Source of the DNA: an uncultured Actinomycetes bacterium | GTDB lineage: Bacteria > Actinomycetota > Thermoleophilia > UBA2241 | NCBI GenBank assembly: GCA_963725665.1 | Contig: CAVRZA010000004.1 | Location: 416,001 to 480,000 of the forward strand | Length of the DNA stretch: 64,000 nucleotides | Direction of reading: 5' to 3' | Shown: piece after piece, positions 39,240-62,772 of the stretch | Numbering within the stretch: position 1 is the first letter of the stretch | Layout: each line of letters starts with the position of its first letter | The notes under the pieces: model-generated | What the model saw: only the letters and a program-made list of their open reading frames with translations | Told to the model about the DNA's origin: nothing | The model's database searches: none | Translations under genes and position numbers: made by a program

Positions 39240-39332
39240 CACGGCACAGTCAGGAGGCGTGGGGTCGCTTCCGGGCGGCGCCGACATCGCCGATGTCGTG
39301 CAGGTCATGGGATAAGCCAGGTAGGAGGATCG

Positions 39333-40823: not shown

Positions 40824-43190
40824 CTAGATCCGCGCGATCACCTCCGCGATCCACGCGTCGAGCGAGGCGTGGCCGAAAGGCGCTTGTACTCCTTTGTCCG
40901 CCAACCAGCGCTCGGCCTTGCCCGCCGGCAGGGCCCACTCGTCGGAGCGGTCGGCGTAGTCGCGGCGCAGGATGTGCAGCGCCGCGAGCGTCGCCACGGC
41001 CGCTTCGCCCTCTTGACCGCCAAGACCGAGCTCCTCAGTCGCGGTCCGCAGGGCGTCCAGCTCAAGACCGCTCACCGCCGCGAACGCCTCGCTTGCCGGC
41101 CACGAGCCGTCGGCGCGCTGGAGGACGATCAGGACGGTGAGAGGATCGTCTGCGGCAGGGCTCAGGTCGTCGCGAGGGGAGTAGGCGAAGGTGGGGCCAC
41201 CCGCGTCGATGGCCATCGGCGCCAGTGGCGAGAAACCCATCGCGCGGTGCGCACGACCTCCGGCTGGAGACGGCGCCGCGGCCATCATCGAGGTGAACAT
41301 GCTCAGCCGTTCGGTGCCGTGCCAGTCCTTCAGCAGCGCGACCGGGACGCGGCGCAACTCGGCTTTGCCGACGGCGCCGCGCTCCTCGTCGCTGCGCTCC
41401 TCTATGGCCACGAAGCTCGTCTCGGACGACATCAGGGAGTAGCGCTTGCCGAGCGCGACGATCGCCTCCTTCGCCTTGCCGGCCTTGCGCTCCGCCTGCG
41501 CTGAGCCGCCCGCGCCGAAGAGCGCGCCGCGGCCCTCCTCAAGGTCGCGGATCGCCTCGCGCGCCAGGAGCCGCGGGATCGTGAGGTCGGCCTCGACGTC
41601 GTCGAGATCGACTGTGGCCGGCAGGCGCATCTCGCCCTCCGCAGTCTTCTGCACCACGGCAACCTCCACGACCTGCTTGGCCGCGCGAGCCGCATTCGCC
41701 TTGTCTTTGGGCACCCGCCCGTAGACCGTCAAGGTCGAGCCGGGGAAGAGCGGCGGCAGATCGGCCGGCGCCACGAGGTCGGGCTCGAGCCCTCCCCAGT
41801 CGATGGTCACGTCGCCCGGCTCGCCGGCGCCGACGCGTGCCATCTGGCGCATCACCTTGGGTTCGACGCGCTCGTTGGGGTGCACGAACTCGGCCCAGCC
41901 GCCCGACGCCCGCGCCAGTCCGCGCACCAGCTGGTCGGAGGCGCCGTAGCCAATCCCCAGAGTGAAGATGGTGGCGTTGTCGGCGTGGCGTGAGGCCAGG
42001 GCGATGACCTCGTCCTCGTTGCCGACCTCACCGTCGGTCAGTAGCAACACGCGCAGCGGCAGCTCGCCGCGCCGGCCGCCCAGAACGTCTTGCAGCGGCT
42101 TGAGGATCTCCGTCCCACCGAGGTCGGCGTCGACCGCCTTCACGGCCTTCGTCGCCTCGTCGAGGGAGTTCTGATCGAAGGCGCGGCTCTCGGCGAAGAG
42201 CTTCTCGTAGGTGCTGCCGAAGCCGACCACGTTGAACGAGTCACCCTCCTGGAGCGAGCGCAGGCAGAGCAGCAGGGCATTGCGTGCCGCGTCGATGCTC
42301 GAGTGCATCATCGACCCCGAGCGGTCGAGCACGAAGATCACTTCGGCCGCCTTGCGGCGATCTTCGACGGCCGGCGCAAGGTCGAGCATGATCACTGTGT
42401 CGCCCTGCTCGTCCTCTGCGACCAGGGCGTTCGTTACCGCCTGCGCCGCCATGCTGAAGGTGACGACGACGTCCTGATCGAGCTGGATGTCGCTGCCGGC
42501 CAGGTCGACGCGCGCCCGCCGACCGCTCATCTGCACCTGTACGGGGTGCGAAGGGCACTCCACCGACGTGACGTCGCTCCAGCCCTCGAAGTCGATGCCC
42601 AGGGTGAGGCCGTAGGGCACATCTCCCATGACGGTCGGCGGCGCGAGGTGCGCGAGCTCCGCAGGGTCCATCGTCTTGAGCTTCTCGGGCGGGATGTAGC
42701 GCGGCGCGACCGTGGTCGGGATCTTGAGGCGCACCTGGTCGCCGAAGCGATCCAGCGGCGCGACGTAGGAGAGCCGCACGACCGCCGCCTGCCCGGGCAG
42801 CAGGTTGCCGACGCTGGCCGTGAACAGGTTCGGCCGATCTTGGTCGAGGAGGTAGGCGCCGTCGCCGCGCGCCATGGCCGCGTCGTACTCCTCGAAGGCT
42901 TTCTCAGCCCCCTCGATGACGCCGACGATGCACCGGTCGTCGATCTCGACCTCGAAGCCGCAGACGGCCGCCGACTCTTCGAGAGGGAAGGAGTAGACGG
43001 CCTCGACGGTGACCGTCTCACGGTTGAAGTAGCGCTGTGAGACGGTCACCGTCGAGGCCGTCCCCCGCGCGTTGACGTCGATGACGACGCCGGTCAGCGG
43101 CACATCGTGCTCGCCGACGAGCAAGCCGGTGGTGCGTTTCTCAGACGACTCGAACGAGCCGTCCTCGCCTGAACCATATCTCAACGACAT
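40824..43190 (-). CDS. VIT-vWA domain protein (VWA5A-like)
   Basis: VIT (QRYFN..EAVYSFPL), MIDAS DRSGSM, LLTDGEV, S--TSFVA, LQRADGSW. Confidence 0.9.
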   Translation of the reverse strand: MSLRYGSGEDGSFESSEKRTTGLLVGEHDVPLTGVVIDVNARGTASTVTVSQRYFNRETVTVEAVYSFPLEESAAVCGFEVEIDDRCIVGVIEGAEKAFEEYDAAMARGDGAYLLDQDRPNLFTASVGNLLPGQAAVVRLSYVAPLDRFGDQVRLKIPTTVAPRYIPPEKLKTMDPAELAHLAPPTVMGDVPYGLTLGIDFEGWSDVTSVECPSHPVQVQMSGRRARVDLAGSDIQLDQDVVVTFSMAAQAVTNALVAEDEQGDTVIMLDLAPAVEDRRKAAEVIFVLDRSGSMMHSSIDAARNALLLCLRSLQEGDSFNVVGFGSTYEKLFAESRAFDQNSLDEATKAVKAVDADLGGTEILKPLQDVLGGRRGELPLRVLLLTDGEVGNEDEVIALASRHADNATIFTLGIGYGASDQLVRGLARASGGWAEFVHPNERVEPKVMRQMARVGAGEPGDVTIDWGGLEPDLVAPADLPPLFPGSTLTVYGRVPKDKANAARAAKQVVEVAVVQKTAEGEMRLPATVDLDDVEADLTIPRLLAREAIRDLEEGRGALFGAGGSAQAERKAGKAKEAIVALGKRYSLMSSETSFVAIEERSDEERGAVGKAELRRVPVALLKDWHGTERLSMFTSMMAAAPSPAGGRAHRAMGFSPLAPMAIDAGGPTFAYSPRDDLSPAADDPLTVLIVLQRADGSWPASEAFAAVSGLELDALRTATEELGLGGQEGEAAVATLAALHILRRDYADRSDEWALPAGKAERWLADKGVQAPFGHASLDAWIAEVIARI

Positions 43191-43432: not shown

Positions 43433-46173
43433 CTATTTGCCGCGCCGCGTCCCCCGCGCCGCCGGTCTCGCCCGGCTGCCGGCCTCGACGATCACGTAAC
43501 GGGCCTTCTCCACAATGTCGGGGTAGTACCTCACGTTGTTGCGGTCCTTCTCTTTGTCCTCCTCGCTCAGAGTCGGGTACTGCACGAGGCAGGGGTGCTT
43601 CTTCGCCTTGTCGTCGCGGACCAGGCTGTGAGTCCAGCCGTCGCGGTACTTCTGCTCCATCCAGCCATCGTGCTCGTCTTCGGCCAGCCGCTCCATGTCA
43701 CCCTCAAGGATGCCCAGCACCTTGGCCCTCGTCAGAGTCGGCGGGTGGTCTTCGGCAACGACTGCCAGTCCCACGAGCGCCAGCACCCGCGGGATGCGGG
43801 CCGCTGCGGCGATGTTGTCCGCCTTCACACCGTCGGGCAGCTCGGGGTAGGGCACGTCGATGTCGGGCTGAATCGGCCATCCCTCCTTGTGGCACAGCTC
43901 ACGGAAATGATCGTGCACGGCCGGCGCGAGCTCCTCGCTGTTCATCTTGAAGGGCCGGTCGCAGTCGACCAGTTCCATGAACTCGTCGTAGTCGACGTGC
44001 AGCGAGAGCTGGTCCTCGGGCGGTAGGGAGGAACGCCTGAGGCCCGACAGCCCGCCGCCCCTGGTGAGCCCCATGATCGTTTCGAGCGACCGCGCCCCGT
44101 GCTCGTACTTGCCGATCTCAAGGAAGGCGGTGAGCAGCCCGCTGTCGATGTCCATCTCGTCGCCCTCGGCAGCGCCGACGAACCCGCCGGTGGCGCGCAT
44201 GAGCAGAGCGCGACGGATGGGGAAGGAGAGGTCGCGGGGAGCATCGTCGTCGACCCATTTGCCTGTCTTGGCGTCGTACTTCTGGCGCCGGTTCGGGCCG
44301 GCGACGTTCAGGTAGCCGTTCAGCCGGCTGACGAAGTCGGGGCCCTTCGCGAGCTTGAACTTCTCGAACCTCGAGAGGCCCTTCTCGCCCTCGCCGGCGG
44401 TGGCGTCGTCGGCCTCGGGGCCCGTTTCTTCGTGCGGCGAGAAGTTGGCGAAGTCGTAGCTTGTGCCGCCGGCGAAGACGAACACGCACTTGCCGATCGG
44501 GTGCGTGACCTGGCCCTCCTGAAACGCGCCGTCTTGCATGGGCGCCAGCAGGTACTGCAGCCACATGTACTCGCGCGAGTCGAACTCGTCCCAGAACACG
44601 ACCGGCGTGGTGCCGCCCAGCACCTTGTCGCGCACCTGGTGGAAGGCGCCGATGAGCTCTCCGGGATCGGAGTACTGCGAGAGGTTGAACTCGAGTATGG
44701 GCACAGCGTCGCCCAGCACCGTCTTGGCGATCTGCTTGACGCCGAACGACTTGCCCGAACCGGGGGCACCGAAGACGGCGATCGACAAGGGCTTGGAGGG
44801 GCGCTGCGTCCTCTCATAGCCCTTGATGAGGCGCTCGAGACCGCGCAAGCTCTCTATCTCGACGCGATCGACCACCAGCAGCTTGCCGAACCTGGCGTAG
44901 GGAAGCTCGTCGACCAGTGCCCGGGGTCCGAACAGGGCCACACGCCGCGCCAGGCCGTAGAGCGGGCGCGCGGCCGCACCTCCCGGCTCGCCCGAGACGA
45001 TCGTCCAGGCCTTCGACTTGCCCGCCGAGGCCACCGTCGCCGGTACGTCGGCGATCCTGTATCGGCATGACGGCTTGAGCAGATCCTCGACGACCGGCTC
45101 GGGCGGGAACCCCTGCCTGGCTATGCGATCGGCGCCGCCGTCGCCGCCGTCGGCCGCGCCGTGGCCGACACGCAGCAGGTGACGCATGGCCGAGAGACCG
45201 CGCATGATGCCGGCGCCGATGTCGGGTCCGGCCTCATCGGCGCCAGGGCCGGTGCCCGCGCCGGTTGGGGCCACGTCGGAGGCGGCCAGCTCCGCCACGA
45301 TCGCCGCCACAAGGCACGACGTGCCGCCCCAGACCTGGCCGGTCACGCTCCGTGCCCAGGCTCCCTCGAGCCCCCGGGGTCGAAGACGAGCCGGTACCGG
45401 GACATGCCGTCGGCGCGTCTGCCGAGCCACAGGGCGCCGTCGGTGCCCAGGCTGACGACCAGGTGCCGGCACTTCGTCAGGTCCGAGATGCTCTTGTTGA
45501 GCGTCAGCTCCTGCAACAGGTCCTGCGCGGTGTGCTCCCACGAGAGCCCCTCGGTGATGCTGACCTCTTCCTGGCGAAGATCGGCGGCCGACACCACCAC
45601 GACGAGGCGGTCGCAGAATCTCTTGCAGGCCTGGCGCCACAGGTCGCCCTGGGCGACGGGGGCGGACGTCTTGAGGACGACCCAGTCCACGGCCGCCGGC
45701 TTGCCGTCACGGAACTCCGCAGGCCAAGCGAGTTCGTTGGTGCGGTGGCGGAAGCCGAGAGCCCCGTCGTCGAGCACGACGATCGAGGCCGCCGCCGCAC
45801 GCGGGGGTGCCTCCGCATAGCTTGTGTTGTGCTCGAGGCTGTCGCCGTAGCCGAGGTTGCCGGTGATGCGCCAGACCCGGCCCTTGCCCTTGTCTCCGGC
45901 GGGGCAAGGGGTCAGGAGCGAGTAGGACTCAACCAACCTGTTCTTGGGCGTGGTGCCCATGCCGAACTCGACCGCGAACGGCTCGGGTGCGGCGGCGCCA
46001 AGCTTCTCGAGGACCCTGAAGAGCAGCTTGGCGCCGCCGGTCTCCTGATGGATCGACGTGCCCTGCTTGCCGTGTGCGTACGGCTTGTCGCGCGCGCCCT
46101 CGTAGATGTGGTAGTCGACGACCACGTCGCCGGCGACCACGACGGTCTTGATGAGAGCTTCTTTGGTCGTCAC
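43433..46173 (-). CDS. PfkB-like / AAA+ ATPase / tandem RyR domain protein (frameshift near 45360)
   Basis: N-terminal VVVAGDVVVD; Walker A GAPGSGKS, Walker B VFWDEFD; C-terminal RyR LAEDEHDGW...GW...HPCLVQY-LSEEDKEKDR. Confidence 0.8.
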
Positions 46174-47599: not shown

Positions 47600-48529
47600 A
47601 TGGGGGCGATGGGGGCACCGTGGCATGAGCCGCTCAGACTGCTGTGCGCCGACGCGTGCGACGTCGCCGGCTCCGGCGCGCCCCGTCGAGACCGTTCTCT
47701 TCTTCGTCGCTCGCTGGTGCCAGAAGGAGACCGGCGGGCCGAACCCGACGTCGCCGCCCTCGACCAGGACCACGTCGCGGACATCGCGGCGCGTGTGGTC
47801 CGCAACCTCGACGACGACGGCGCCCGCGTCGACCGGCTCGTGGCTGGCGACGCGGGCGCCTGGACCGAGCTGCGCCGTCTGCTCTACGCGAGCGCCTGCT
47901 CGCGCGCCGACGCGGCGGCCGCCGAGTACGCCGACGAGGCGCTGCAGAAGATCGCCATCGTGCTGCTCACCGGCACGCCTCCGTCCCGGGCGGCCGCGCA
48001 GCTCGCCGAGGCGATCGAAGGTCCCCGCAACGAGTACGTCTTCACCTCGCCCTTCCCGTTCTGGGCGCGCGCCGTGGTCATCAACCTGATCGTCGACGAC
48101 AAACGGCGCCAAGGCGCGCGAGCGTGAGGCGCCGCGGGTGCACGCCACGCGGAAGCCCCCCTGCCTCGACGCGGCCACGCTCGAGCGCGCGCACAAGGCG
48201 CTGCCGGGGCTCCTCGACGCCGTCCGCGAGCTGCCGCCCGTGCAGCGCTCGGTGATGGTCTGGACGCTGGCGCGGCGCGACCTCGATCCGGTCGCCGAGC
48301 GCCTGCGCGAGCTCGCCCCCGACCTGTTCGGCGAGACGGGGGATGGGGCGGTGGCCTCCGACCACGACATCGCCGAGCGCCTCGGCACCACCACGCGACT
48401 GGTGGCCGCCAACCGTTCGGTCGCGCGCTGCAAGCTGGCTGCGCGCGACCCCTACTGGAAGCTGCTGCTCGACATGCTTCTGCCCCACCGGAGCACCCGC
48501 CCCACCCGGAGGAGGACCACGATGGATGA
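47600..48529 (+). CDS. ECF-type sigma factor (frameshifts near 48120 and 48500)
   Basis: Sigma2-like WTELRRLL..ADEALQK..FPFWARAVVINLIVD; sigma4-like LPPVQRSV..DIAERLGTT..NRSVARCKL. Confidence 0.65.
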
Positions 48530-49503
48530 GCACCGGTCCGCCCAGTCGATCCTGCAGCGCGCGCTCGCGCGCGGCACGCTCGAGGGCGTCGCGACGGCCG
48601 CCGCCGCGGTCGATCCCGCCGAGCTCGAACGGGCGCTCGCCCACATCGCGTCCTGCGAGGAGTGCAGCCGCCGCTTTGACCTCGCCGAGACGGCCGCGTG
48701 GTTGGAGAGTAGGGAGGAAACCCACGCGATGGCACAGGTACCAGTCGATCCCGCAGCACTCTTCGAGTCCGCCCTCACGGCGGCGCTCTCCGACCCCGAC
48801 GACATCGTCCGCCGGCGCGCGGCCGAGCGGCTGGGCGAGATGACGAGGCTGGGGGCGGCGGCGGTCGACGCGCTCGTCGCGGCCGCGGGAGAGGACCGCG
48901 ACGAGCGCGTCCGCGCCGCCGCCCTCACCGCCCTCCAGCGCCTCGACACCCAGGTCTCCCTTCCCCAGTGGGTGATCGACGTGTGGTCGGCGGCGCCGGC
49001 GGAGGCGGCCCCTACTTGGCGGGTGTGCTGGCTCGCCTCGCCGCCCCCGCCGGCGCCAACGACCGGCGTCACGCGTCTGGCGGGCGCCGAGACGCAGGAC
49101 GACGAGACCGTCGTGCTCTCCGGCGAGCGCGGGGTGAGCGGGCGCGTCTCGCGCGAGCCCGACGGCCTCTGGCTGACGGTCGAGGGCCTGCCGGCCGAGG
49201 TCGAGGACACGAAGCCGGTGGTCGCCGTCCCGGGGGCGCTCGAGGTGGAGGAGATCACGGTCGTGTGGGCCGGAGACGAGCCCGGGCTGATCGCCGCCTC
49301 CGAGCCGGTCTCCGAGGGTCGCTGCGGGTGCGGCTGGGGAAGGTCGAGGAAGGCGGACGGAGGCGCGCTGCGGCAGCGGCGCCTCCGCCGTCGCGCCGCA
49401 GACGCGGCGCGCGCTGCCGTCGCGGAGCCCCGCCGCGCCGCCGCGCCACGCTCTTCGACCAGATCTACCTCCTCCACCCGAGAGCCCCGCGAAGAAGGTT
49501 TGA
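48522..49503 (+). CDS. Zinc-finger (HxxxCxxC) anti-sigma factor with HEAT repeats (frameshifted)
   Basis: GGAGGAGG RBS, ATG 48522; AHIASCEEC; LSDPDDIVRRRAAERLG and DRDERVRAAALTAL HEAT repeats; 3' end approximate. Confidence 0.65.
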
Positions 49504-49533
49504 CCTTCGGCACGCCGCCGGCGTGTTCTGGGC

Positions 49534-50439
49534 ATGGACGGGCCTGCTTCTCGTCTTCGCGGGAGGCCGGCGATCGCCGCCGTCGCGTCGGCTCGGCTCA
49601 CGTCCGACGGCCTCGTCATCCTCGGCATCCTTCTCGTCGCATCGTCGCGGTCGTCCTCCTGGACGTGGGACAAGCGCGCCGCGCGCCGGGCGAAGGCCGC
49701 GGCGCTCGCGGCGCAGCCGGCGCCGCAGTGGGCGATCTCGCTCCTCGTCGACGCCGACGAGAAGTCCGGCATCCTGCGCCCGATCGTGCAGCTCCTCGGC
49801 CCCCAGCTTCCCTCCGACATCACCGTGGATCTCCACGTCGGCGACGAGCGCGGCGACGTGCGCCTGACCACCGAGCGCCGCTTCAGCGACCCCGCGACGA
49901 GGACCGACCTCGTGCTGGGGACGCTCGCGGTCCCCGACGGCGTCTCCGTCGCCGAGGCCGCCCTCTGCGACTGGACCGTCGTGGTCAGCCACGACGGCCA
50001 CGAGATCGCGCGCCGCCGCGGTCCGCTGGCCGCCGCCCCGCGCCTGAACGACGAGGCCGAGCTGCAGGCGCCCGACCTGGAGCCGGAGCCCGATGTGGAG
50101 CCGCCGCCGCCCGCGACCCCCGATCCGGTCCGTCACCTGAGATGGACGATCGGCCTGTCGTGTTCCGTCTGCGGCTGCGCCATCGGGGGCTACCTGCTGA
50201 CCACGCTGTCGGCCTGGCTGTGGTTCGTCGCCGTGCCGCTGTTCCTGCTGGCGGCCATCCTTCTGGTGGCTGCCGCCCTCGTGCTCCACACCCCGTGCCC
50301 GCTGTGCGGGCGACTCACCACCGTGGTCGGGCGCACCGGAGCCCAGCGCTGCGACGCGTGCGCCAGGTTCACACTCACGCCGGTGTGGGTGAGATGGCTG
50401 CCGTTTGATGATCTCCCCGCGCCCGCGTGTCTCGGGTGA
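49534..50439 (+). CDS. Membrane protein with C-terminal zinc ribbon
   Basis: N-terminal TM, soluble beta-rich region, two TMs, CPLC...CDAC. Confidence 0.6.
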   Translation: MDGPASRLRGRPAIAAVASARLTSDGLVILGILLVASSRSSSWTWDKRAARRAKAAALAAQPAPQWAISLLVDADEKSGILRPIVQLLGPQLPSDITVDLHVGDERGDVRLTTERRFSDPATRTDLVLGTLAVPDGVSVAEAALCDWTVVVSHDGHEIARRRGPLAAAPRLNDEAELQAPDLEPEPDVEPPPPATPDPVRHLRWTIGLSCSVCGCAIGGYLLTTLSAWLWFVAVPLFLLAAILLVAAALVLHTPCPLCGRLTTVVGRTGAQRCDACARFTLTPVWVRWLPFDDLPAPACLG

Positions 50440-50465: not shown

Positions 50466-50934
50466 ATGACGCTGTACCAGGCTGGAGCATCGCCGCAGAG
50501 CACCCCGAGGCGGCCGGCGCGCACTGGTCGGACCACGCCCTACGGGCGCTGGCGCCTGGCCGCCGAGTCCGAGGCCATGAAGCGCTTTCCGGGTTTCAGC
50601 CTGCACCTGCCGGAGGGCGGCAACCTCACCTGGGCGGGCGTCCTGCGCAGCACCTTCAACCGGCGCAAGCGCTACCTCGTGAAGGTGACCTACCCCGACC
50701 GCTTCCCCCACGAGGCGCCGGTCGTGACCATCGAGAAGCCGGCCCTCGACCGAGAAGACGCCCCACCTTCTGGGCGGCAACCGTCCCTGTCTGTACCGCG
50801 GCCTGAACGGCCCGCGCAACGGGTACGACCCGGCGCGGACCACGGCGGCGACGCTGGTCGCCTGGACGGCGCTCTGGATCCACGCCTACGAGACCTGGAA
50901 GGCCACCGGCACCTGGCCGGGAAGCGAGGAATGA
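50466..50934 (+). CDS. Prokaryotic E2 (ubiquitin-conjugating-like) protein, one-base frameshift at the C run 50761-50764
   Basis: W-G-L, VKVTYPDRFPHEAPVV, then +1 frame APHLLGGNRPCLY...YDPARTTAATLVAWTALWIHAYETWKATGTWPG; Cys codon at 50788. Confidence 0.75.
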
Positions 50935-50935
50935 G

Positions 50936-51938
50936 ATGACGGCGCTCGCACGACGCTCGACCTCGGTGCGGACCTTCTGCCGCGCGGCCGGACGCGCGCT
51001 GCGGCGCCGCCGTCGCGATCGGTCGCGCCGCTGCATCGGTCGCGCCGCTGCGTCCGGCCAAGCGCCGGCACGCGGTCGCGCCGGCGACCGCGACCGTGCT
51101 GGTGCGCCCCGAGGTGCTGCGCACGATCTCGGTGGGGTCGCGCGCGCGGGAGACGACGAGACCGGCGGACCGTTCTTCGGCACCGTCCAGCGCACGTGGG
51201 ACGGCGACGGGTACCGCTTCGTCGCCGCCCTGCTGGGCACCCTGCCGCCGGGGCCGGCCGTGGACGGCGGCCCCGGATCGGTCGGCCTCGGCGCGCGCAG
51301 CGACGGTGAGCGCGCCGCGTCGGCGCTGCGCTGGCTGCGCGAGACGACCGGGCTCGACCTGCTCCACTTCGGCGACTGGCACCGGCACCCGTTCGGCAGT
51401 CCGCAGCCCTCCGGCGGCGACCAGCGCACGGCCCGCGAGATGTGGGAGCTGACGGCCGCGCCGCTCTGGCTGACGGCGATCGCCGTCGACGACGCGACCT
51501 CCGAGCGGGACTCCGGCGCCGAGGACAACGTCGTGACGCTGACGCGGTCGCAGCGCCTGGACCAGGAGATCCACTTCTACCAGGAGTGCGAGCCGCACGG
51601 GCTCGTGCCGGTGCGCGTGCGCATCGACGCCGAGACGGCGCCCAGGCTGCCGCCGCTGCCGTGGTACATCGTCGACCCGGCGCGCTTCGCCGCCGAGTGC
51701 CGCCTGCTGCTCGCCAACGGCTTCCGGCCGGCGCTGCAGCCGGTCATGCCCGGCGCGCGTCCGGCGGTCATCCTGCGGCTCGAGCGCGACGGCGGCGACC
51801 CGCTGACGGTCGAGACCGGCCTGCGGCATCCCTACGAGGAGCCGCTGGTGCGCGACGCCAAGGGGCGCCGCATCCGGCTGCGCTCGGCGTGGTCGCCGGA
51901 GCGCTTCATCGTCGACCTGCTGCAGGGAGGTGGCCTAG
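50936..51938 (+). CDS. JAB/MPN metalloprotease fused to a C-terminal E2-like domain (frameshifts)
   Basis: ETGG...GDWHRHP...PSGGD JAMM motif; C-terminal PWY..RFAAEC..HPYEEP..WSPERFIVDL; probable TAG at 51936-51938. Confidence 0.75.
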
Positions 51939-52752
51939 GTGACCGACTCGCGCCGGCAGAGGCTCGAGGGCCTCTACGACACGCCGTGCCCTGCGCGAGA
52001 AGCGCGTCGTGGTGGTCGGCCTCGGCTCGGGCGGCTCGACGGTCGCCCTCGAGCTGGCCAAGGCCGGCGTCGCGCGCTTCACGCTGATCGACCCCGACAC
52101 GCTGGAAGAGGCGAACCTGATCCGCCACGAGTGCGACGACCGCTACCTCGGTGAGAACAAGGCGGTCGCGGTGGCGGATCTCATCCGCCACCGCGACCCC
52201 GAGGCCGAGGTCGAGGTGCTGGCGGCCGACGTGTTCGACCTGGGCGAACGTCTGGAGCGGCTCGTCGCCGGCGCGGACCTGGTGGCCGTCTGCACCGACG
52301 CCGAGCCGCCCAAGCACCTGCTCAACGAGCTCTGCACGGTGGCCGGCACGCCGGCGGTGTACGCGGGCGTGTACGCGCGGGCCGCCGGCGGCGAGGTGAT
52401 CCGCTGCGCCGGCGGCCCCGACGACGCCTGCTACGCCTGCGTGACCTCGGTGCTCAAGGAGACGGCGCAGACGCCGGTCGACGAGGCCGAGCTCGACTAC
52501 GGCGCCGTCGACGCCGACGGCACGCTGCACGGCGCGCCCGGCCTGGGCCTCGACGTGCGCCTGATCGCCCTGCTCCACGCCAAGGTCTGCCTGGCGACGC
52601 TCGTGCCCGAGCTGGCCCTGGACGCCAACGTGGTGCTGTTCGGCAACCAGGCGATGGAGGGTCTCTTCCCGCGCCCGCTGGCCAGCGCGCTGGTGCAGGT
52701 GGCGCGGCAGGAGGAGTGCATGATGTGCCGCCCGCTGCGCGGGGAGCTTTAG
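51939..52752 (+). CDS. E1/ThiF-family activating enzyme (frameshift near 51990)
   Basis: GLGSGGS, IDPDTLEEANLIRH, NKA, CYAC, DYG, PGL--DV, CMMC. Confidence 0.85.
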
Positions 52753-52765
52753 GCCCCGCACCCGC

Positions 52766-53138
52766 TCAGGCCCAGGCGATGATGCCCAGGCCGCGGTCGG
52801 CACAGATACGGAAGAGCTTCTGCAGGTCGCGGATCTCGCCGGGACTGGGCGTGGAGTACTCGTCGAGGTCGAGCCGCTCGCAGACCGTGTCGGGGTCGCA
52901 CTCGGCCAGCTTGTCGGCCATCTCGGCGACCGTCTCGGGCGGGAGCCACTCCTGGTAGAGGGACTCGCCGGTGACCTCGCTAGACGAACCAGCTGTAGAC
53001 CTTGCCGCGGAACGAGGTGACGCCGTCGCTGAACATGCTGCCGCAGAGCTGGATACCGGACTCGGTGAGGGCGCGCTCGTCCTCGGGGGTGAGCGTGGTC
53101 TCGTCCGGCGTGCGCGAGATGATGTTGTCGAGTCCCAT
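52766..53138 (-). CDS. Hypothetical MGLD-family protein (frameshift near 52980), paralog of 59680-60039
   Basis: MGLD...LC...SFRGKVY...EWLPPE-V--MA...CDP...C-DRGLG-IAW. Confidence 0.7.
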
Positions 53139-53214
53139 CGCCGACCTCCCCTCTCCTGCTTGGCAACCTGTCCCTCGAGGCGCGGACGCCAAGCACGGCG
53201 CGGTCGATCTTGCC

Positions 53215-53682
53215 TCAGGCCCCGCCCAAGATCATTCGTATCACCAGCACGACGAGGGCCACGACGATCACGCTCCCCACGATCACCGAGGTGGCGACCG
53301 GGTAGGCGCGGAAGGCCGCGACAACGGGGAGGCCGAAGATGAGGCCGAAGACCACGGCACCGACTGCGAACCCCGCCACGCCGCTGACACCCCAGTCGAT
53401 CCCGGAGCCGAAGGCCCAGGCGATACCGGTCAGAAGCCCCATGAACAGCGTGCCGAGGAGGAACGCTACGACAAAGAAGGCCACCCAGGAGGCGACGCCG
53501 CGGGCGAACCACGACGCACGGCCGGACGCGCTCTTGCTCCTCTTGGCGCCGGAGCTGCCCTTCGCTGCGCCCTGCTGCTGGGCCTCCCGCTTGAGCGCTT
53601 CCCATTCGTCGTCTGTTAGAGGCCGGCCGAGCACCTCCGCGACCTGGTTTCTGACCTGGCTCTCGGTCCCCTCGAAGTCCAC
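53215..53682 (-). CDS. Hypothetical membrane protein
   Basis: GGAG RBS, GTG 53682, three to four TM segments. Confidence 0.6.
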   Translation of the reverse strand: MDFEGTESQVRNQVAEVLGRPLTDDEWEALKREAQQQGAAKGSSGAKRSKSASGRASWFARGVASWVAFFVVAFLLGTLFMGLLTGIAWAFGSGIDWGVSGVAGFAVGAVVFGLIFGLPVVAAFRAYPVATSVIVGSVIVVALVVLVIRMILGGA

Positions 53683-53796
53683 TCCTGCCTCCCTACGACC
53701 CGGCGAGTGTCTCACAAGGGCCTACCTCAAACAACGCGGACGGCCTTTGATGTCGGCGCGTCTCGCCCGTCTCTGGGTTGAAACGGGAGGTGCAAG

Positions 53797-53997
53797 ATGA
53801 CGGGCAACGGTAACGAAACCGGGCGCGGCGCCCGCGCCGGTCAGCTCAGTCCGCAGGACGTCGAGCGCCTGTTCGACGGCGGATATCGCGACATCGAGAT
53901 CCTGCCCGACGGCACGCTGCGAGAGACCGTCCGCGGCGGCAATCCCGTCGACGAGGCGGTCACGCGGACGCTCAAGACCGAGCGCACCTGGTACTGA
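53797..53997 (+). CDS. 66-aa orphan peptide
   Basis: GGGAGG RBS 6 nt upstream; high-GC third positions; internal LRETVRGG; ends TLKTERTWY. Confidence 0.7.
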   Translation: MTGNGNETGRGARAGQLSPQDVERLFDGGYRDIEILPDGTLRETVRGGNPVDEAVTRTLKTERTWY

Positions 53998-54946: not shown

Positions 54947-56680
54947 ATGACAGAGAGCTCAGACACCGGCACAGGCGAAGGTGCCAAGTTCGGCATCTTC
55001 ATCAGCTACCGCCGCAGGGACACGGCGGCCGGCTACGCAGGCCGCCTCCGGGGCGATCTCAGGCGCGAGCTCCCTGATGCGGAGATCTTCTTCGACGTCG
55101 AGTCGATGCCGCAGTTCATCGGCAAGAAGTTCTCGGTGATCATCGACAGGACGCTCGCCTCCTCCGACGTGCTGCTGGCGATGATCGGTACCGAATGGGC
55201 CGCCATCACCAAGGAGCGCGAGCAGGACAAGAGGGACTGGGTGCGCCGCGAGATCGCGGCGGCGCTCGAGCGCGACATCAGGGTCGTACCGCTGCTCGTC
55301 GAGGGCGCGGTCATGCCCGACGAGGACGAGCTACCGGAGGACATCGCCGACCTAGCCGAGTTTCAGGCCCACGACATTGGTAACAAGACCTGGGACCACG
55401 GCGTTCGGACCATCGCCGCCATGATCAGGGAAGCCCAGGCGGAGAAAGGGCTGGTTGCCAAGCCTGAGCAACCGCCCGGGCGGGAGCCCGAGCCCGAGGC
55501 CGAGATGACCGCCGGGCCGCAGCCCGAGTCGGCGGCCGCGCGCGAAGAGGAGGAGAGGCGCAAGCGGGCCATGGCCGACATGCTGAGCATGGCCCAGGCG
55601 GCGAAGATGCCGGTGGCCGAGGCTGAGCCGCCCATCGTCGAACCCGCTGCCGAGGCGGAGGCCGAGACTACAGCCGCTCGCGAGGCCGCGGCGGCGGCCA
55701 CCCGCGAAGCCGAAGAGAAGGCCGCTCGCGAGGCGGAGGAGAAGGCGCAGCGCGCACAAGAGGCCAAGGCCAAGCGCGCGGCCGCCGCCAAGGCCAGACG
55801 CGAGGCTGCCGCCAAGGCCAAACCTGAAGAAGAGGAGAGGCTCAAGCGCGAGGCCGCAGAGAGCTCCGGCCACCGACCCCTCAGCGAGATCCTCGACGAG
55901 ACCGGCCTCACCTATCGCCAGGTCGGCAACGCGTTCGGGCTGCTGTTCCACGCCGAGAAGGCCGAGCAGGTGGCCGTCGCGGTGCAGGACGTGGCCCACG
56001 ATATCGTCCTCTTCAGCACGCCGAGCCCCAACCCCGGGGGCTCCAAGGAGGAGAGTTGGCTGCACAATCTCCTGCGCCTGAGCCTCGCGGCCGACTACAT
56101 CAAGGCGGTCGCCAGGGGCTCCGACGTGCGCCTGGCCTGCGAGATCCCGCGCGCGATGCTCACTCCCAAGGTCGCCGAGGGCCTGATCCGCGGCCTCGCC
56201 TACCTGGCCGACTCCACCGCTAACGACTTCACCAGCGACGCCGGCTGGCGCGAGCTGCAGCTGGGCTGTGCCCAGCGGCAGAGCCACTTCTTCGACATCG
56301 ACGCCGAGCAGGCCAAGGCCGAGGTCGAGCGCCTGGCAGAGAAGAAGGGCATCAGGACCGACAGCGAGGGAGGCAGCCTGCGTCTGCACCTGCCGCTGGC
56401 CGGCACCGAGACCAGGGTGGTCGTGCACACCTCGAGCACGGTGGTCAGCTTCGCGGCCTACTTCTCCGACCTGAAGCCCAGCGGCGACAAGGTCGCCTAC
56501 ATGCGCCGCATGCTCGAGCTGTCGGGCACCGTCGACGTCGCGCGGCTGGTCTTGGACTCCGACGGCGACGCGGCCTTCTTCTACGAGGTGCCCGAGGTGG
56601 CGCCCGACACCCTCGACCAGATCGAGGCGCAGTTCACCATGCTGCTGATCGGCATGGCGGTGGTGCACGTCGGGGCCTAG
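54947..56680 (+). CDS. TIR domain - Ala/Glu/Lys coiled coil - tandem YbjN/CesT-like domain protein
   Basis: IFISYRRRD, DWVRREI; TolA-like linker; two C-terminal repeats with L-L----------LDSDGD pattern. Confidence 0.75.
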   Translation: MTESSDTGTGEGAKFGIFISYRRRDTAAGYAGRLRGDLRRELPDAEIFFDVESMPQFIGKKFSVIIDRTLASSDVLLAMIGTEWAAITKEREQDKRDWVRREIAAALERDIRVVPLLVEGAVMPDEDELPEDIADLAEFQAHDIGNKTWDHGVRTIAAMIREAQAEKGLVAKPEQPPGREPEPEAEMTAGPQPESAAAREEEERRKRAMADMLSMAQAAKMPVAEAEPPIVEPAAEAEAETTAAREAAAAATREAEEKAAREAEEKAQRAQEAKAKRAAAAKARREAAAKAKPEEEERLKREAAESSGHRPLSEILDETGLTYRQVGNAFGLLFHAEKAEQVAVAVQDVAHDIVLFSTPSPNPGGSKEESWLHNLLRLSLAADYIKAVARGSDVRLACEIPRAMLTPKVAEGLIRGLAYLADSTANDFTSDAGWRELQLGCAQRQSHFFDIDAEQAKAEVERLAEKKGIRTDSEGGSLRLHLPLAGTETRVVVHTSSTVVSFAAYFSDLKPSGDKVAYMRRMLELSGTVDVARLVLDSDGDAAFFYEVPEVAPDTLDQIEAQFTMLLIGMAVVHVGA

Positions 56681-60406: not shown

Positions 60407-60931
60407 GTGACGGCGGCCGAACGGGTGGTCCGCGTGGGGGTCACGGGCCACCGCACGTTCGCCGATGTCGATGCGGTCGCGGTGCGCGTGCGTGCCGTCC
60501 TCGGGCGTCTGCTGCGCCTCGCGGGCGACGAGGGCGACGGCGCCCGGGTGCGGCTCGAGGTGATCTCGCCGCTCGCCGAGGGCGCCGACCGCCTCGTCGC
60601 CCGCGAGGCGCTCGCCCTGCCCGGCGCGACCCTGGTGGCGGCACTGCCCTTCCCCCAAAGCGACTACGCGCAGGACTTCGCCAGCGAGCAGTCGCAGCGC
60701 GAGTACAGCGATCTCCTTGCTCGGGCGCAGGCGGTCGAGGTGATGCCGCCGGTGGCCACGCGCGAGGCCGGCTACGAACAGGTCGGCCGTTGGGTCGTCG
60801 ACCACAGCGACGCTGTCGTCGCTCTCTGGGACGGAGAGCTCTCTCGCGACCAGGGTGGTACGTCCGGGGCCGTCGCGTATGCTGCGAAGCGTGGTGTGCC
60901 GTTGCTCTGGGTGCACGTGAGCCGGCCCTAG
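60407..60931 (+). CDS. SLOG (YpsA-like) domain protein
   Basis: VGVTGHR, SPLAEGAD, LPF, ALWDG...GGT motifs. Confidence 0.82.
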   Translation: MTAAERVVRVGVTGHRTFADVDAVAVRVRAVLGRLLRLAGDEGDGARVRLEVISPLAEGADRLVAREALALPGATLVAALPFPQSDYAQDFASEQSQREYSDLLARAQAVEVMPPVATREAGYEQVGRWVVDHSDAVVALWDGELSRDQGGTSGAVAYAAKRGVPLLWVHVSRP

Positions 60932-60948
60932 GAAGGGGTGGGGGACCC

Positions 60949-62772
60949 GTGACGGAGAACGGCACGCCGGATCGATTCCGTCGGTCTCTCCGACGCCGTC
61001 TCACGCACCGACTACGAGCGATCCAATGGCCACTGGTCGGCGTTGCGGCTGCGCTGGCGATCGTGCTGGGCTACATAGGATTCAAGGAGTACTACGAGAT
61101 TGTCGGGGAGCAGCGCGGCTTCTGGGATGTCCTGTATTCTGACTTGCAGCTGTTCCCGCTGCAGTCGGGTCTGACGACCGGCCCTGTCCCCTGGCAACTC
61201 AACGTCGCCCGCTTCCTCGCTCCCGCCGTCACCACGGTCACAGCCGCGGCGGCCATCGCTGCCCTGCTCAGCGAACGCCTGCGACTGGCCCGCCTGCGTT
61301 ACCTCCGCGACCACACCGTTGTCTGCGGCCTCGGCCGCAAGGGGCTCATGATCGCCGAGAGTCTGGCGCGCCGCGGCGAGCGTGTCTTGGTCGTCGAGAG
61401 CGACGAGCAGAACGACTATCTCGATCGCTGCCGGGAGCGCGGCGTGCCGGTCCTGTTCGGGGATGCTGCCGACCCCCGGCTGCTGGGGCGCGCGCGCGTC
61501 GACCGCGCCCGGCGGGTCGTGGCCGTCACCGGCGACGACGGCGTGAATGCCGAGGTCGCCGTCGCGTGCCGGGGGCTGGTCACGGGCCGCCGCGGCTCGC
61601 CCCTCGACTGCTTCGTGCACCTCGTCGACACTCAGCTCTGCCGGCTCCTCTACGAGCAGGAGCTCCGCTTGGCAGGACGCGATTCCCTGCGGCTCGAGTT
61701 CTTCGACGTCCACCATCGCTGCGCTCGCGCGCTGCTGAACGAGTTCCCGTTCTTCGCGGCGGACGTTGTCACGGGAAGACCGACGGGGTCGATACCGGCC
61801 TCTCGGCCTCACGTCCTCGTCGTGGGCTGCGGCCGGACCGGCCAGGACCTCATCGTGCAGGCTGCCCGCCAGTGGTGGCGTGAGCATCGTGATTCGGGCG
61901 AGCGCTTCTGGGTCACGATCGTCGACTGGCACGCGCTCGCGCGGCTCGAGGGTCTGCGCCTCCGTTACCCGCGCCTCGGCGATGCGTGCGAGGTGACGCC
62001 GGTGGAGCTCGACGTCACGTCCCCCGAGTTCGAGCACGCCGCCTTTCTGGGCGGCGGTGACGGCGTGCCCGCCGTCACCGCCGCCTACATCTGTCTCGAC
62101 GACGACTCGCGCAGCCTGTCGGCGGGTCTCGCCCTGCTGCCGCGCACGCGTGCCGCGGGCATCCTCGTCGTCGTGCGCATGATGGAGGAGGTCGGACTGG
62201 CGACGCTCGCCACCGGCGACAAGGACGGCGGCACGGAGCTGCGTGCCTTCGGCGTGCTCGGCTACGTGTGCGCGCCCGAGCGGCTCTTCGCCGGCATGCA
62301 CGAGACCCTCGCCAGGGCGGTCCACGAGGACTTCGTCGCCGGGCGCCTGCAGGCCGGCGAGAGCTCCGCGACGAACCCGGCTCTCGTGGACTGGGACGAG
62401 CTGCCCCCCGGCCTGCGTGAGTCGAACCTCGATCAGGCGGCGCACATCTTCGAGAAGCTGCGCGAGGTCGACTGCGACCTAGCCCCGCTCACCGATTGGA
62501 ACGCGGAGTCCTTCACCTTCACGCGGGAGCAGGTCGAGAAGCTGGCCGAGATGGAGCACGTCCGTTTTGTGAAGGAGCGTCTCGACGCGGGCTGGACGTA
62601 CCAGCCGGGACCGAAGGACATCGCCAGGAAGTCGAGCCCCTACCTGAGGCCGTGGGACGACCTGAGCGACGGCGAGAAGGAGTTCGACCGTCGCGCGGTG
62701 CGCGACCTGCCGCTCATCCTGGCCGACGTCGGCCTGCAGATCGTCCGACGCGACGGCGAGGAGGGCGCATGA
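60949..62772 (+). CDS. Two-TM (channel-like) - tandem TrkA-N - RyR domain protein
   Basis: TM-pore-like YSDLQLF-TM; HTVVCGLGRKG, GDA; second VVGCGRTG; RyR LARAVHE..WDELP..SN, LAEMEHVRF..GW..LRPWDDLSDGEKEFDR. Confidence 0.85.
   Translation: MTENGTPDRFRRSLRRRLTHRLRAIQWPLVGVAAALAIVLGYIGFKEYYEIVGEQRGFWDVLYSDLQLFPLQSGLTTGPVPWQLNVARFLAPAVTTVTAAAAIAALLSERLRLARLRYLRDHTVVCGLGRKGLMIAESLARRGERVLVVESDEQNDYLDRCRERGVPVLFGDAADPRLLGRARVDRARRVVAVTGDDGVNAEVAVACRGLVTGRRGSPLDCFVHLVDTQLCRLLYEQELRLAGRDSLRLEFFDVHHRCARALLNEFPFFAADVVTGRPTGSIPASRPHVLVVGCGRTGQDLIVQAARQWWREHRDSGERFWVTIVDWHALARLEGLRLRYPRLGDACEVTPVELDVTSPEFEHAAFLGGGDGVPAVTAAYICLDDDSRSLSAGLALLPRTRAAGILVVVRMMEEVGLATLATGDKDGGTELRAFGVLGYVCAPERLFAGMHETLARAVHEDFVAGRLQAGESSATNPALVDWDELPPGLRESNLDQAAHIFEKLREVDCDLAPLTDWNAESFTFTREQVEKLAEMEHVRFVKERLDAGWTYQPGPKDIARKSSPYLRPWDDLSDGEKEFDRRAVRDLPLILADVGLQIVRRDGEEGA

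Follow-up and report, generated by a model that had tools for sequence, protein, structure and literature searches.

We describe a bacterial gene cassette in which an E2, a JAB peptidase and an E1 are encoded in fixed order, and which constitutes a real gene family of the ubiquitin-like tagging type. The family is apparently undescribed, judging from a comparison of known system types by their defining features; no description of the cassette was found in the searchable literature, and earlier surveys may hold one. The tag is likely to be a small, disordered protein that has a Trp-Tyr motif and not a ubiquitin fold, and we infer that this protein is conjugated. The copy studied here lies in a stretch of 64,000 nucleotides (the window) and has one-base frame breaks in all three enzyme genes. 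That it is a copy of a conserved cassette of the ubiquitination type with the Trp-Tyr protein as modifier, and with indels that are likelier to be consensus errors, is a reading to which we give an even chance. The features of the region, in window coordinates, are as follows.

47600..48530, plus strand: sigma-like protein (regions 2 and 4), split across two frames near 48127-48138
48522..49500, plus strand: HEAT-repeat protein with a zf-HC2-like motif (anti-sigma-like); Pfam HEAT_2 2.7e-9, zf-HC2 0.055
49534..50439, plus strand: membrane partner protein, conserved before the E2 in related loci L004, L005 and L006
50466..50934, plus strand: E2; active site with an invariant His...Cys-Leu motif, its Cys codon near 50788; frame broken by a net +1 at 50750-50755
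50936..51938, plus strand: JAB/JAMM peptidase with a putative UEV-like domain (UBC fold without Cys) at its C-terminus; frame broken at 51133-51136 (-1) and at 51923 (+1)
51939..52752, plus strand: single-domain ThiF/MoeB-type E1; GTG start; net +1 frame break at 51982-51987; Pfam ThiF 4e-29
52766..53715, minus strand: two genes between the E1 and the small ORF; no Pfam family
53797..53997, plus strand: 66-aa protein ending ...TRTLKTERTWY, intact, with high GC3 in its frame; candidate modifier

Between 50466 and 52752 a Cys-bearing E2 is followed by a JAB peptidase whose C-terminal domain is UEV/E2-like, and then by a single-domain ThiF-type E1; the GC3 plot, three-frame translation and tblastn with intact homologs concur in placing all three genes on the plus strand. 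In G023, an ortholog 85% identical to the window copy, the three genes are intact. The original prediction had named a Cys-bearing E2, a JAB peptidase and an E1 with an ATP loop and a Zn site; translation, profile matches and fold matches confirmed the three assignments. The E2 reads from an ATG at 50466 to a frame shift near 50750-50755 and then through ...HLLGGNRPCLY... to a stop at about 50934. Its catalytic Cys is invariant (13 of 13 E2 sequences). The PADLOC E2 profile matched the window fragment at 1.1e-13 and the intact ortholog at 3.4e-24, and Pfam matches of intact E2s to UQ_con, Prok-E2_A/B and RWD all fell under the cut-offs.

The JAB gene probably has an additional frame break between 50975 and 51035. 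Its motifs ETGG and HxH-x7-S-xx-D are intact in the window by translation and family alignment, and the JAMM motif E..HxH..S..D is invariant across that alignment. The match to Prok-JAB (4e-4) lies under Pfam's cut-off, and the predicted model gives strong fold matches to BRCC36 (Z 17.9) and Cap3 (Z 15.5). The second E2-like domain predicted for this protein was borne out at the level of fold: model residues 219-311 match the Tsg101 UEV (Z 8.6, rmsd 2.8, 91 aligned residues), the Vps23 UEV (Z 8.3) and several E2s (Z 7.4-7.9), which suggests a UEV or inactive-E2 fold. The domain has no invariant Cys in the family alignment, no Pfam match, and no significant similarity by hhalign (4.5%) to the cassette's own E2.

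The window E1 carries GLGSGG (the GxGSxG ATP loop), CYAC...CMMC (two CxxC pairs) and DYG in the crossover loop. As had been predicted, this loop is without Cys; in all 130 sequences compared, Cys is absent there and the Tyr (Y194) is invariant. Family members have 270-340 aa and one ThiF domain. By sequence, the nearest solved relatives are MoeB (1e-26), ThiF, UBA5 and MccB (7e-21), and BubCD is only distant (4.7e-8, against 1e-26 for MoeB). In the Bub E1, a Tyr of the crossover loop serves as the catalytic residue (Ye et al., bioRxiv 10.1101/2024.11.21.623953).

The order E2, JAB with its C-terminal domain, E1 is kept in 15 further loci from two or three phyla, and the cassette is under purifying selection, with dN/dS of 0.22-0.54 between G023 and the window. 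In one Chloroflexota order it is near-universal (119 of 151 genomes) and single-copy, with housekeeping genes as neighbours; in Thermoleophilia it is sporadic (2 of 41 genomes) and sits amid TIR/RyR/WD40 genes. The TIR/RyR conflict island of the original prediction is thus true of the source genome and does not describe the Chloroflexota setting, because of which a defence role is not to be assumed for the family. The Chloroflexota order includes the cultured Aggregatilinea lenta. Across the Chloroflexota phylum, a JAB-CTD profile, which is Actinomycetota-biased and reaches only 1e-23 on its own control, matched 1 of 201 genomes, a weak result, and a small-protein profile matched 2 of 201. A plasmid search returned no match for the cassette, and the viral contigs searched gave only three matches, each to the JAB domain only.

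Profile scans of the window ORFs between 36 and 63 kb detected no cyclase, beta-grasp Ubl or PRTRC gene beside the cassette, in agreement with the prediction that no cyclase, GG-ended Ubl or ParB/PRTRC gene is adjacent. The flank scan covered 56 proteins from 13 related loci (54 of 96 candidate flank ORFs and 2 from L005). Since the homologous loci likewise have neither a GG-ended Ubl nor a CD-NTase, the window copy is not a deletion remnant.

Inspection of the neighbourhoods of E1 homologs for a co-occurring small ORF, as had been proposed, brought out the Trp-Tyr protein family, which stands beside the E1 in 14 of the 14 loci that extend beyond it. The small ORF is directly 3' of the E1 in L005 and in all 12 Chloroflexota loci; in G023 and the window it is close by. 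The original prediction of a variant system that conjugates something other than a classical Ubl stands insofar as the system is distinct and has no GG-ended Ubl or CD-NTase, but it overlooked the candidate moiety at 53797-53997 within its own range. The family comprises 1687 database clusters without a Pfam family, and its members share a conserved (K/R)xR(A/T)WY motif with 0-11 variable residues behind it. KRRAWY is present in all of the 120 best database relatives, followed by no residue in 5, one in 54, two in 28 and three in 26. The Actinomycetota subtype mostly ends exactly in ...TWY, and some few family members have more than 100 residues beyond the motif. About half of the Chloroflexota small proteins have exactly one residue after the Tyr; some one-residue extensions may merely reflect overlap with the start of the next gene. 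Matches in the ESM Atlas were to Chloroflexota clusters only. A low-confidence model (pLDDT 54) shows a single helix and a single hairpin instead of a beta-grasp fold. In L015, a repeat search resolved the ORF after the E1 into two 64-aa repeats, each ending ...TLNKPRTWG, and Tandem Repeats Finder reported no repeats in this locus; the ORF looks like a poly-modifier precursor. To our knowledge, E1 substrates all end in Gly, Ala or Asn, and a bulky C-terminal Trp-Tyr is unlike them; alternatively, the motif could serve for docking.

The two minus-strand genes probably lie outside the cassette proper. The first (52766-53192) is of a 141-aa type, split near 52994 in the window and intact in G023, and the second (53215-53715) encodes a 166-aa membrane protein; the pair is not at the corresponding position in L005, where the small ORF comes directly after the E1. 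Upstream, the membrane partner has a TM helix at its N-terminus, then a beta-rich domain of about 100 aa, two more TM helices and a CxxC...CxxC ribbon. It matched no Pfam or PADLOC family, and its central domain is related (hhalign 72%, E 3.4e-5) to the TM proteins that precede the E2 in Chloroflexota loci. In its Actinomycetota form, the cassette has the sigma-like/HEAT pair further upstream. The sigma-like gene is one uninterrupted ORF in G023 and is conserved upstream in L004, L005 and L006. Of the ECF/anti-sigma pair originally predicted, the sigma call is weak (Sigma70_r4_2 E 0.04-0.05, under the cut-off) and the HEAT/zf-HC2 partner is better supported; the latter has a homolog in L005 and an ill-defined 3' end, the coding frame changing near 49440-49570.

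The predicted indel positions are consistent with the alignment to G023. Contigs from four unrelated metagenomes are without the window indels at 50750, 51136, 51983 and 52994, having one base fewer than the window at 50750 and at 51983 and one base more behind 51136 and behind 52994; these contigs come from relatives rather than from the source organism and therefore do not tell error from mutation. None of the public sequencing runs contains more than 0.11 of the stretch's words. A codon-model Viterbi scan, which took the place of a GC3-block scan that missed known breaks, counted about 537 frameshift-like junctions over the whole genome, or 14 per 100 kb; its false-positive rate on isolate loci is about 4 per 100 kb. 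The junctions occur across the assembly at about 3.5 times the control rate and are clumped; elsewhere the scan found 2 in 49 kb of isolate-genome loci and 10 in 18 kb of another long-read MAG locus. A further candidate frame break was noted around 28.5-30.6 kb.

Consensus error of long-read metagenome assembly is a likelier source of these indels than true inactivation. A true pseudogene cluster in the source genome, in which real one-base indels have left a dead system, is a somewhat unlikely but serious alternative, and is a matter separate from the function of the family. It would account for five breaks within 2.3 kb, with more in the sigma-like, HEAT-protein and 52766-53192 genes, and recent real inactivation keeps some probability because the breaks lie outside long homopolymers and cluster in the cassette while the essential rpoB and rpoC are free of interruptions. 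Genuine decay agrees poorly, however, with indels that are solely of the +/-1 type, larger deletions being absent, and with aligned codons between window and G023 that contain zero stops in four genes and one stop in the E1. Codon bias is kept in every shifted frame, and the dN/dS values given above likewise speak against it, as do the assembly-wide, clumped excess of junctions and the G+C content of the cassette region (0.745), the highest in the window.

We propose that the membrane partner, the Cys E2, the JAB-UEV metallopeptidase, the homodimer-type single-domain E1 and the largely disordered Trp-Tyr protein would act together. The JAB peptidase would cut off residues beyond Trp-Tyr, and the E1 would adenylate the exposed C-terminal carboxylate and may carry the small protein as an oxyester on its invariant crossover-loop Tyr, as in Bub E1s. 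The small protein would then be handed to the E2 Cys and linked by the E2 to targets, possibly at the membrane partner, and the JAB-UEV protein would also take it off again. In its full form, this is a Pup-like disordered mini-protein activated at Trp-Tyr and passed from E1 Tyr oxyester to E2 Cys thioester, which is housekeeping in the Chloroflexota order and was borrowed into Thermoleophilia conflict islands; we advance it tentatively, at rather less than even probability.

Several other readings of the same genes have to be weighed. The small protein may be a regulator, adaptor or target, with the E1 activating, for example, the tail of the membrane partner or no protein modifier at all, which we regard as unlikely though deserving attention. 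The membrane partner ends ...LG in the window and G023, the small-protein model is not beta-grasp, and outside Actinomycetota an SL(D/E)(D/E)LL-type C-terminal motif is shared by 10 of 10 E1s and 6 of 7 membrane partners, counts that are partly circular since the pattern was written after the sequences were viewed. This motif is followed by 0-40 variable residues, and in L015 the E1 and the membrane partner end exactly in ...LL. Against such a role for the partner's tail, 6 of 12 Chloroflexota loci have no membrane partner next to the cassette while the small protein is present every time, the extreme C-termini of the partners are not conserved, and the L015 tandem units ending ...RTWG suit a tag precursor. 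It is improbable that the E1 modifies the small-protein C-terminus in a non-conjugating pathway for sulfur transfer or a peptide natural product (ThiF/MoeB, CysO-Mec or MccB/PaaA types). MoeB, ThiF, UBA5 and MccB are the E1's nearest solved relatives, and MccB and PaaA act on peptide C-termini other than Gly; yet no such pathway needs the Cys-bearing E2 and UEV-like domain that are invariant in the cassette, the E1 of only about 280 aa is without an MccB-type N-terminal peptide clamp, and rhodanese, ThiS/MoaD, cysteine synthase and peptide-export genes were not found nearby. A degenerate type II CBASS remnant, with Cap2/Cap3-like genes that have lost cyclase and effector, is very improbable and already contradicted. 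The best defence-library matches are CBASS models (PDLC00876 for the E2, 3.4e-24; PDLC00829 for E1-E2, 2.3e-35), and Cap3 is among the top JAB-domain fold matches, but cyclase and effector families are absent from the window neighbours and the 56 scanned flanking proteins, and a remnant would hardly be conserved under purifying selection throughout most of one order or have separate E2 and E1 genes and a Cys-less E1 loop.

Whether the proteins belong to the described Bub, Bil or Cap2-Cap3 groups, as the original prediction asked, was examined feature by feature, and the cassette lacks the defining features of CBASS type II, Bil, Bub, 6A-MBL and PRTRC. Its E2 and E1 are closest to the profiles of type II CBASS (Cap2 E2-E1 fusion and Cap3 JAB; operon type 6b of Iyer et al. 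2006). The two also have in common a homodimer-type single adenylation domain, a JAB with an intact JAMM motif and Cap3-like fold, and a conjugated moiety, candidate in the cassette, that is not a beta-grasp Ubl. In contrast to type II CBASS, no CD-NTase or effector was found with the cassette, E2 and E1 are separate genes in 16 of 16 loci rather than fused as in Cap2, and the E1 has an invariant Tyr in place of the catalytic Cys. The putative UEV-like domain on the JAB, the small Trp-Tyr protein and the membrane partner set it further apart, and unlike the sporadic type II CBASS it is near-universal within one Chloroflexota order.

Bub (6E/DUF6527) resembles the cassette in its JAB peptidase, its single adenylation domain and a Cys-less E1 crossover loop with an invariant Tyr, on which the Ubl~Tyr oxyester forms. 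Bub E2s use Ser whereas the cassette E2 Cys is invariant, and the modifiers of Bub are Ubls of the beta-grasp fold with a terminal Gly, unlike the Trp-Tyr protein with its low-confidence, non-beta-grasp model. The DUF6527 protease BubE and the Ubl-E2 or JAB-E1 fusions of Bub were not found with the cassette; Pfam scans of the window or flanks gave no match to PF20137 (BubE, DUF6527), and those of window ORFs or flanking proteins no Ubl family. Bil (BilABCD, types I/II) likewise has separate E2, JAB and E1 genes and a separate small modifier gene, but BilA is an ISG15-like double beta-grasp, which the small protein is not in its low-confidence model, and BilD is a multidomain E1 (IAD-AAD-CYS), whereas the cassette E1 is a Cys-less single domain of about 280 aa. 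6A-MBL is a triple E2-E1-JAB fusion with a metallo-beta-lactamase; the cassette genes are separate, no MBL gene was found nearby, and model NF058523, whose cut-off is 320, scored 67.7 and 19.5 bits. The PRTRC ThiF model TIGR03736 reached 15 bits against 144.75, and no ParB family was found nearby. Sulfur-carrier models were similarly distant (adenyl_thiF 82 bits against 275, MoeB 67 against 449), with no ThiS/MoaD, ThiG or MoaE among window ORFs and flanking proteins.

In concept, the cassette with its candidate tag resembles pupylation (Pup/PafA/Dop) of Actinobacteria, in which the tag is small, intrinsically disordered and not beta-grasp, and the system is lineage-wide and housekeeping-like. 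The enzymology is unrelated, pupylation using glutamine-synthetase-like ligases rather than E1, E2 and JAB, and homology is not claimed. All characterised E1/E2 pathways known to us, in bacteria as in eukaryotes, have a beta-grasp Ubl as cargo, except for CBASS, where an enzyme's tail is moved; a dedicated Trp-Tyr tag without the beta-grasp fold, if true, would broaden the range of known E1 substrates. The cassette may serve housekeeping protein tagging rather than phage defence, and it is directly testable because it is near-universal and single-copy in an order with a cultured member, Aggregatilinea lenta. A Tyr-bearing, Cys-less E1 paired with a Cys-bearing E2 would join the recently described oxyester chemistry of Bub to classical thioester transfer.

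Three plus-strand genes were resolved within 50466-52752 of the window using a GC3 frame plot and three-frame translation, and together they make up a cassette of an E2, a JAB peptidase with a C-terminal UEV-like domain (JAB-CTD) and a single-domain E1:

Start 50466 (ATG), plus strand: E2, reading ...KVTYPDRFPHEAPVV..., a frame change near 50755, then ...HLLGGNRPCLY...WPGSEE
Second gene within 50466-52752, plus strand: JAB protein carrying ETGG plus HxH-x7-S-xx-D, then about 100 more residues
Start 51939 (GTG), plus strand: E1, with a frame change near 51985, then GLGSGG, CYAC, DYG and CMMC

Motifs, GC3 plot and profile matches all bear out the trio named in the original prediction. Profile searches matched the E2 to a CBASS-type E2 of PADLOC (1.1e-13), the E1 to the PADLOC E1-E2 model PDLC00829 (2.3e-36) and Pfam ThiF (4e-29), and the JAB protein to Pfam Prok-JAB at 4e-4, which is under the family cut-off. 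Matches to NCBIfam ThiF, MoeB, 6A-MBL cap2_3 and PRTRC ThiF all fell far under their cut-offs.

The frame breaks that had been suspected in all three genes were located by alignment to the intact genes of G023, a relative belonging to another genus. Its region is syntenic with the window at 77-87% nucleotide identity, and all three genes are unbroken there (E2, 155 aa; JAB protein, 311 aa; E1, 282 aa). Relative to G023, the window carries frame changes of net +1 at 50750-50755, -1 at 51133, +1 at 51923 and net +1 at 51982-51987; the switches at about 51134-51140 and 51983-51988 were confirmed by homologs P0008 and P0234, and the JAB N-terminus probably holds one more between 50975 and 51035. 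Neighboring genes are also split relative to G023, namely a sigma-like gene, a HEAT-protein gene and the following:

52766-53192, minus strand: gene of no Pfam family, split by a missing base near 52994; the G023 version is intact (141 aa)

These breaks could be consensus errors or a true inactivation of the cassette in the source genome (G000), a 3.7-Mb assembly of 12 contigs and ~70% G+C. The rpoB and rpoC genes of this genome are uninterrupted (open frames of 1243 and 1421 aa), which counts against a uniformly poor assembly. In G000, codon-model segmentation counted 537 frameshift-like junctions (14 per 100 kb), clumped at up to 9 in 6 kb. Control loci gave 2 junctions in 49 kb (three isolate-genome loci) and 1 in 12.6 kb (a short-read MAG locus), and the same scan found 10 in 18 kb at the G023 locus, which comes from another long-read-style MAG; these rates were counted for assembly noise. 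No public sequencing run contains the window stretch (best share of words, 0.11), and contigs of relatives from four metagenomes are without the window's indels at 50750, 51136, 51983 and 52994. When read through the breaks, the window genes show dN/dS values of 0.22-0.54 against G023, with no stops among the aligned codons of four genes and one stop in E1. Every break is a +/-1 event, and the cassette region has the highest G+C in the window (0.745). We consider consensus errors the more probable explanation, and true inactivation in G000 the less probable one. Elsewhere in the window, codon-model junctions were placed at 14346, 21482, 27523, 29120, 30377 and 34752, and several other genes are seemingly split, for instance on the minus strand at 13.6-15.3 kb and at 28.5-30.6 kb.

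Among species-representative genomes, a search located 21 related loci. The E2/JAB-CTD/E1 order is kept in G023, in an Actinomycetota MAG (L005), in 12 Chloroflexota loci and in L015, a 35% G+C locus from a 1.4-Mb genome; it is also kept in a Gaiellaceae locus (L006) whose contig stops inside the JAB gene. The His...Cys-Leu signature of the E2 is invariant in 13 of 13 sequences. The intact E2 matched PADLOC E2 model PDLC00876 (3.4e-24) and fell under the cut-offs of all Pfam E2 families, and the E1 matched PDLC00829 (2.3e-35). The E1 family comprises 264 clusters at E <= 1e-20. In an alignment of 130 sequences, neither CxxC pair varies, DYG keeps its Tyr in 100% and the crossover loop is free of Cys at every position; the Cys-less DYG loop first remarked in the window holds for the family. 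The solved E1s closest in sequence are MoeB (1e-26), ThiF, UBA5 and MccB, followed at greater distance by Cap2 (8e-13) and BubCD (5e-8).

Database searching at E <= 1e-3 gave 113 clusters for the JAB-CTD protein, almost all of them full-length, with identities of 44-88%. In the family alignment, the JAMM residues are invariant, and the extension carries invariant LPxLPW, RFxxExRLL, T..YP...P and F..D motifs with no conserved Cys. A fold search was performed with a predicted model of the G023 protein (pLDDT 83.6). The N-terminal domain matched BRCC36 (Z 17.9), Rpn11 homologs, Cap3 (15.5), a Bil deubiquitinase (12.7) and BubCD (10.6). Residues 219-311 matched solely UBC-fold proteins, with Tsg101 (Z 8.6) and Vps23 (8.3), both inactive UEV domains, at the top, then FANCL and E2s (7.3-7.9). 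The second E2-like domain originally assigned to this protein is therefore upheld as a predicted fold, but sequence profiles reveal no E2-like match in it.

Comparison of the neighborhoods of E1 homologs revealed a co-occurring small ORF. In L005, an ORF of 61-63 aa lies directly 3' of E1 and ends in ...TRTLKTERTWY, and all 12 Chloroflexota loci carry an ORF of 85-110 aa directly after E1 that ends in ...SLRKRRAWY plus 0-6 residues. Homologs are present in G023 and in the window, and L015 has a tandem form:

53797-53997 of the window, plus strand: homolog of the L005 ORF, intact, with high GC3 in its own frame
L015:9610-10023, plus strand: tandem small-protein ORF of 137 aa with two repeated units, directly after E1

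E1 and the small ORF lie ~40 nt apart in L005, ~1 kb apart in the window and ~5.8 kb apart in G023, where the additional DNA has weaker codon bias.

At E <= 1e-3, the small-protein profile collected 1687 clusters, which are without a Pfam domain and are either unnamed or labeled "hypothetical"; KRRAWY plus 0-11 variable residues is present in each of the best 120. When 50%-identity representatives were searched exhaustively, 71 clusters were obtained, among which Actinomycetota-type proteins mostly terminate exactly at ...TWY, a few members replace Tyr with Phe, and a few run more than 100 residues past the motif. PADLOC and ESM Atlas returned nothing informative for this protein. Its predicted model is poor (pLDDT 54), with a single helix and a single hairpin ahead of or beside a basic, flexible tail, and is not a beta-grasp. 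The L015 repeat consists of 135-nt copies of 90% identity set 192 nt apart, and each unit ends in ...TLNKPRTWG, in which Gly replaces Tyr, before a short acidic tail; as judged from its sequence, this ORF looks like a poly-modifier precursor.

Ubl precursors that are trimmed by their own peptidase have a strictly conserved C-terminal motif and a variable, dispensable extension. Because the conserved C-terminal motif, the variable extension and the tandem-unit form match this pattern, the small protein would be the precursor of a tag, trimmed by the peptidase after the C-terminal motif as Ubl precursors are. We infer this mechanism solely from anatomy and co-occurrence. The suggestion that the conjugated moiety is not a classical Ubl stands at its core but was incomplete, as what is conjugated is probably the Trp-Tyr protein encoded at 53797-53997.

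Cassettes of the Actinomycetota form have three genes in front of them, which encode a sigma-like protein, a HEAT/zf-HC2 protein and a membrane protein. Of the ECF/anti-sigma pair proposed here, the HEAT/zf-HC2 protein was recovered, but the sigma call is weak, consisting of a region-4 match only. Membrane proteins positioned before E2 in 6 of 12 Chloroflexota loci, as well as in L015, are related to the central domain of the Actinomycetota membrane protein (hhalign 72%, E 3.4e-5). Outside the Actinomycetota, an SL(D/E)(D/E)LL-type motif occurs within the last 6-46 residues of 10/10 E1s and 6/7 membrane proteins (L007-L016 and L020; e.g. L013:8831-9694 and L011:6049-7035), and in L015 both the E1 and its membrane partner stop exactly at ...LL. 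The pattern, which was written after the sequences had been seen, is absent from the C-terminal tails of 33 control proteins. UBA5 has an E2-binding tail, and by analogy with it the motif may be a common docking peptide.

In the Chloroflexota order to which L011 and L013 belong, 119 of 151 genomes carry the small protein, at one copy per genome; within this order, the family makes up a lineage-wide system. Of 201 genomes sampled evenly across Chloroflexota, 2 have the small protein (the centre genome and one also in the order search). E1 occurs in 2 of 41 relatives of G000, itself counted; among 101 genomes from the order of L015, that of L015 alone has the L015-type E1. No plasmid matched the cassette, and viral contigs gave matches to the JAB domain only.

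Around the window cassette, WD40 proteins lie at 56.9-59.0 kb, and profile scans identified the following:

39315-40337, plus strand: TIR protein
40827-43169, minus strand: VIT-vWA protein
43478-45370, minus strand: AAA-type ATPase-RyR protein
54947-56680, plus strand: TIR protein
60919-62766, plus strand: TrkA_N-RyR protein

Such a neighborhood is typical of NTP-dependent conflict systems. The proposed TIR/RyR conflict island thus applies to the window, with its TIR, RyR and WD40 genes, but not to the Chloroflexota loci, where flanking genes are housekeeping (NUDIX, Fe-S assembly, ribosomal protein S20, transporters and response regulators). The L005 cassette neighbors TPR-CHAT and RelA_SpoT proteins. 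By eye, the C-terminal half of the TIR protein at 54947-56680 resembles the C-terminal part of the TPR-CHAT protein at L005:1-3573 (...LLR.S..A.Y.KAV...). In a single Chloroflexota locus, a ribosome quality-control gene of NFACT/RqcH type (L018:3346-5124, plus strand) precedes the cassette by ~2 kb.

The full-text literature searched, a scope beyond which Burroughs et al. 2009, 2011 and 2015 lie, holds no account of this cassette class or of another Tyr-loop E1 family. Operon types 6a-6e were defined by Iyer et al. 2006 (PMC1779556), and in none, as set out there, is a small protein with a non-Gly end encoded together with a separate Cys-E2, a JAB peptidase that has a UBC-like domain at its C-terminus and a separate E1 of one domain. 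Among 56 flank proteins scanned at the homologous loci, there was no cyclase, Ubl, MBL or DUF6527 protein. With separate genes, a Cys-less E1 loop and a Cys E2, the cassette agrees with the original prediction of a system that is not CBASS, Bil or Bub and that is without a classical Ubl. CBASS type II differs in that its Cap2 is a fusion whose E1 part has a Cys and its substrate is a CD-NTase, and Bil in having a multidomain E1 and an ISG15-like Ubl. According to the Bub preprint (bioRxiv 10.1101/2024.11.21.623953), the E2 of Bub uses Ser, its Ubl is a beta-grasp protein ending in Gly and BubE is present, whereas its E1 shares with that of the cassette a Cys-less, Tyr-bearing loop.
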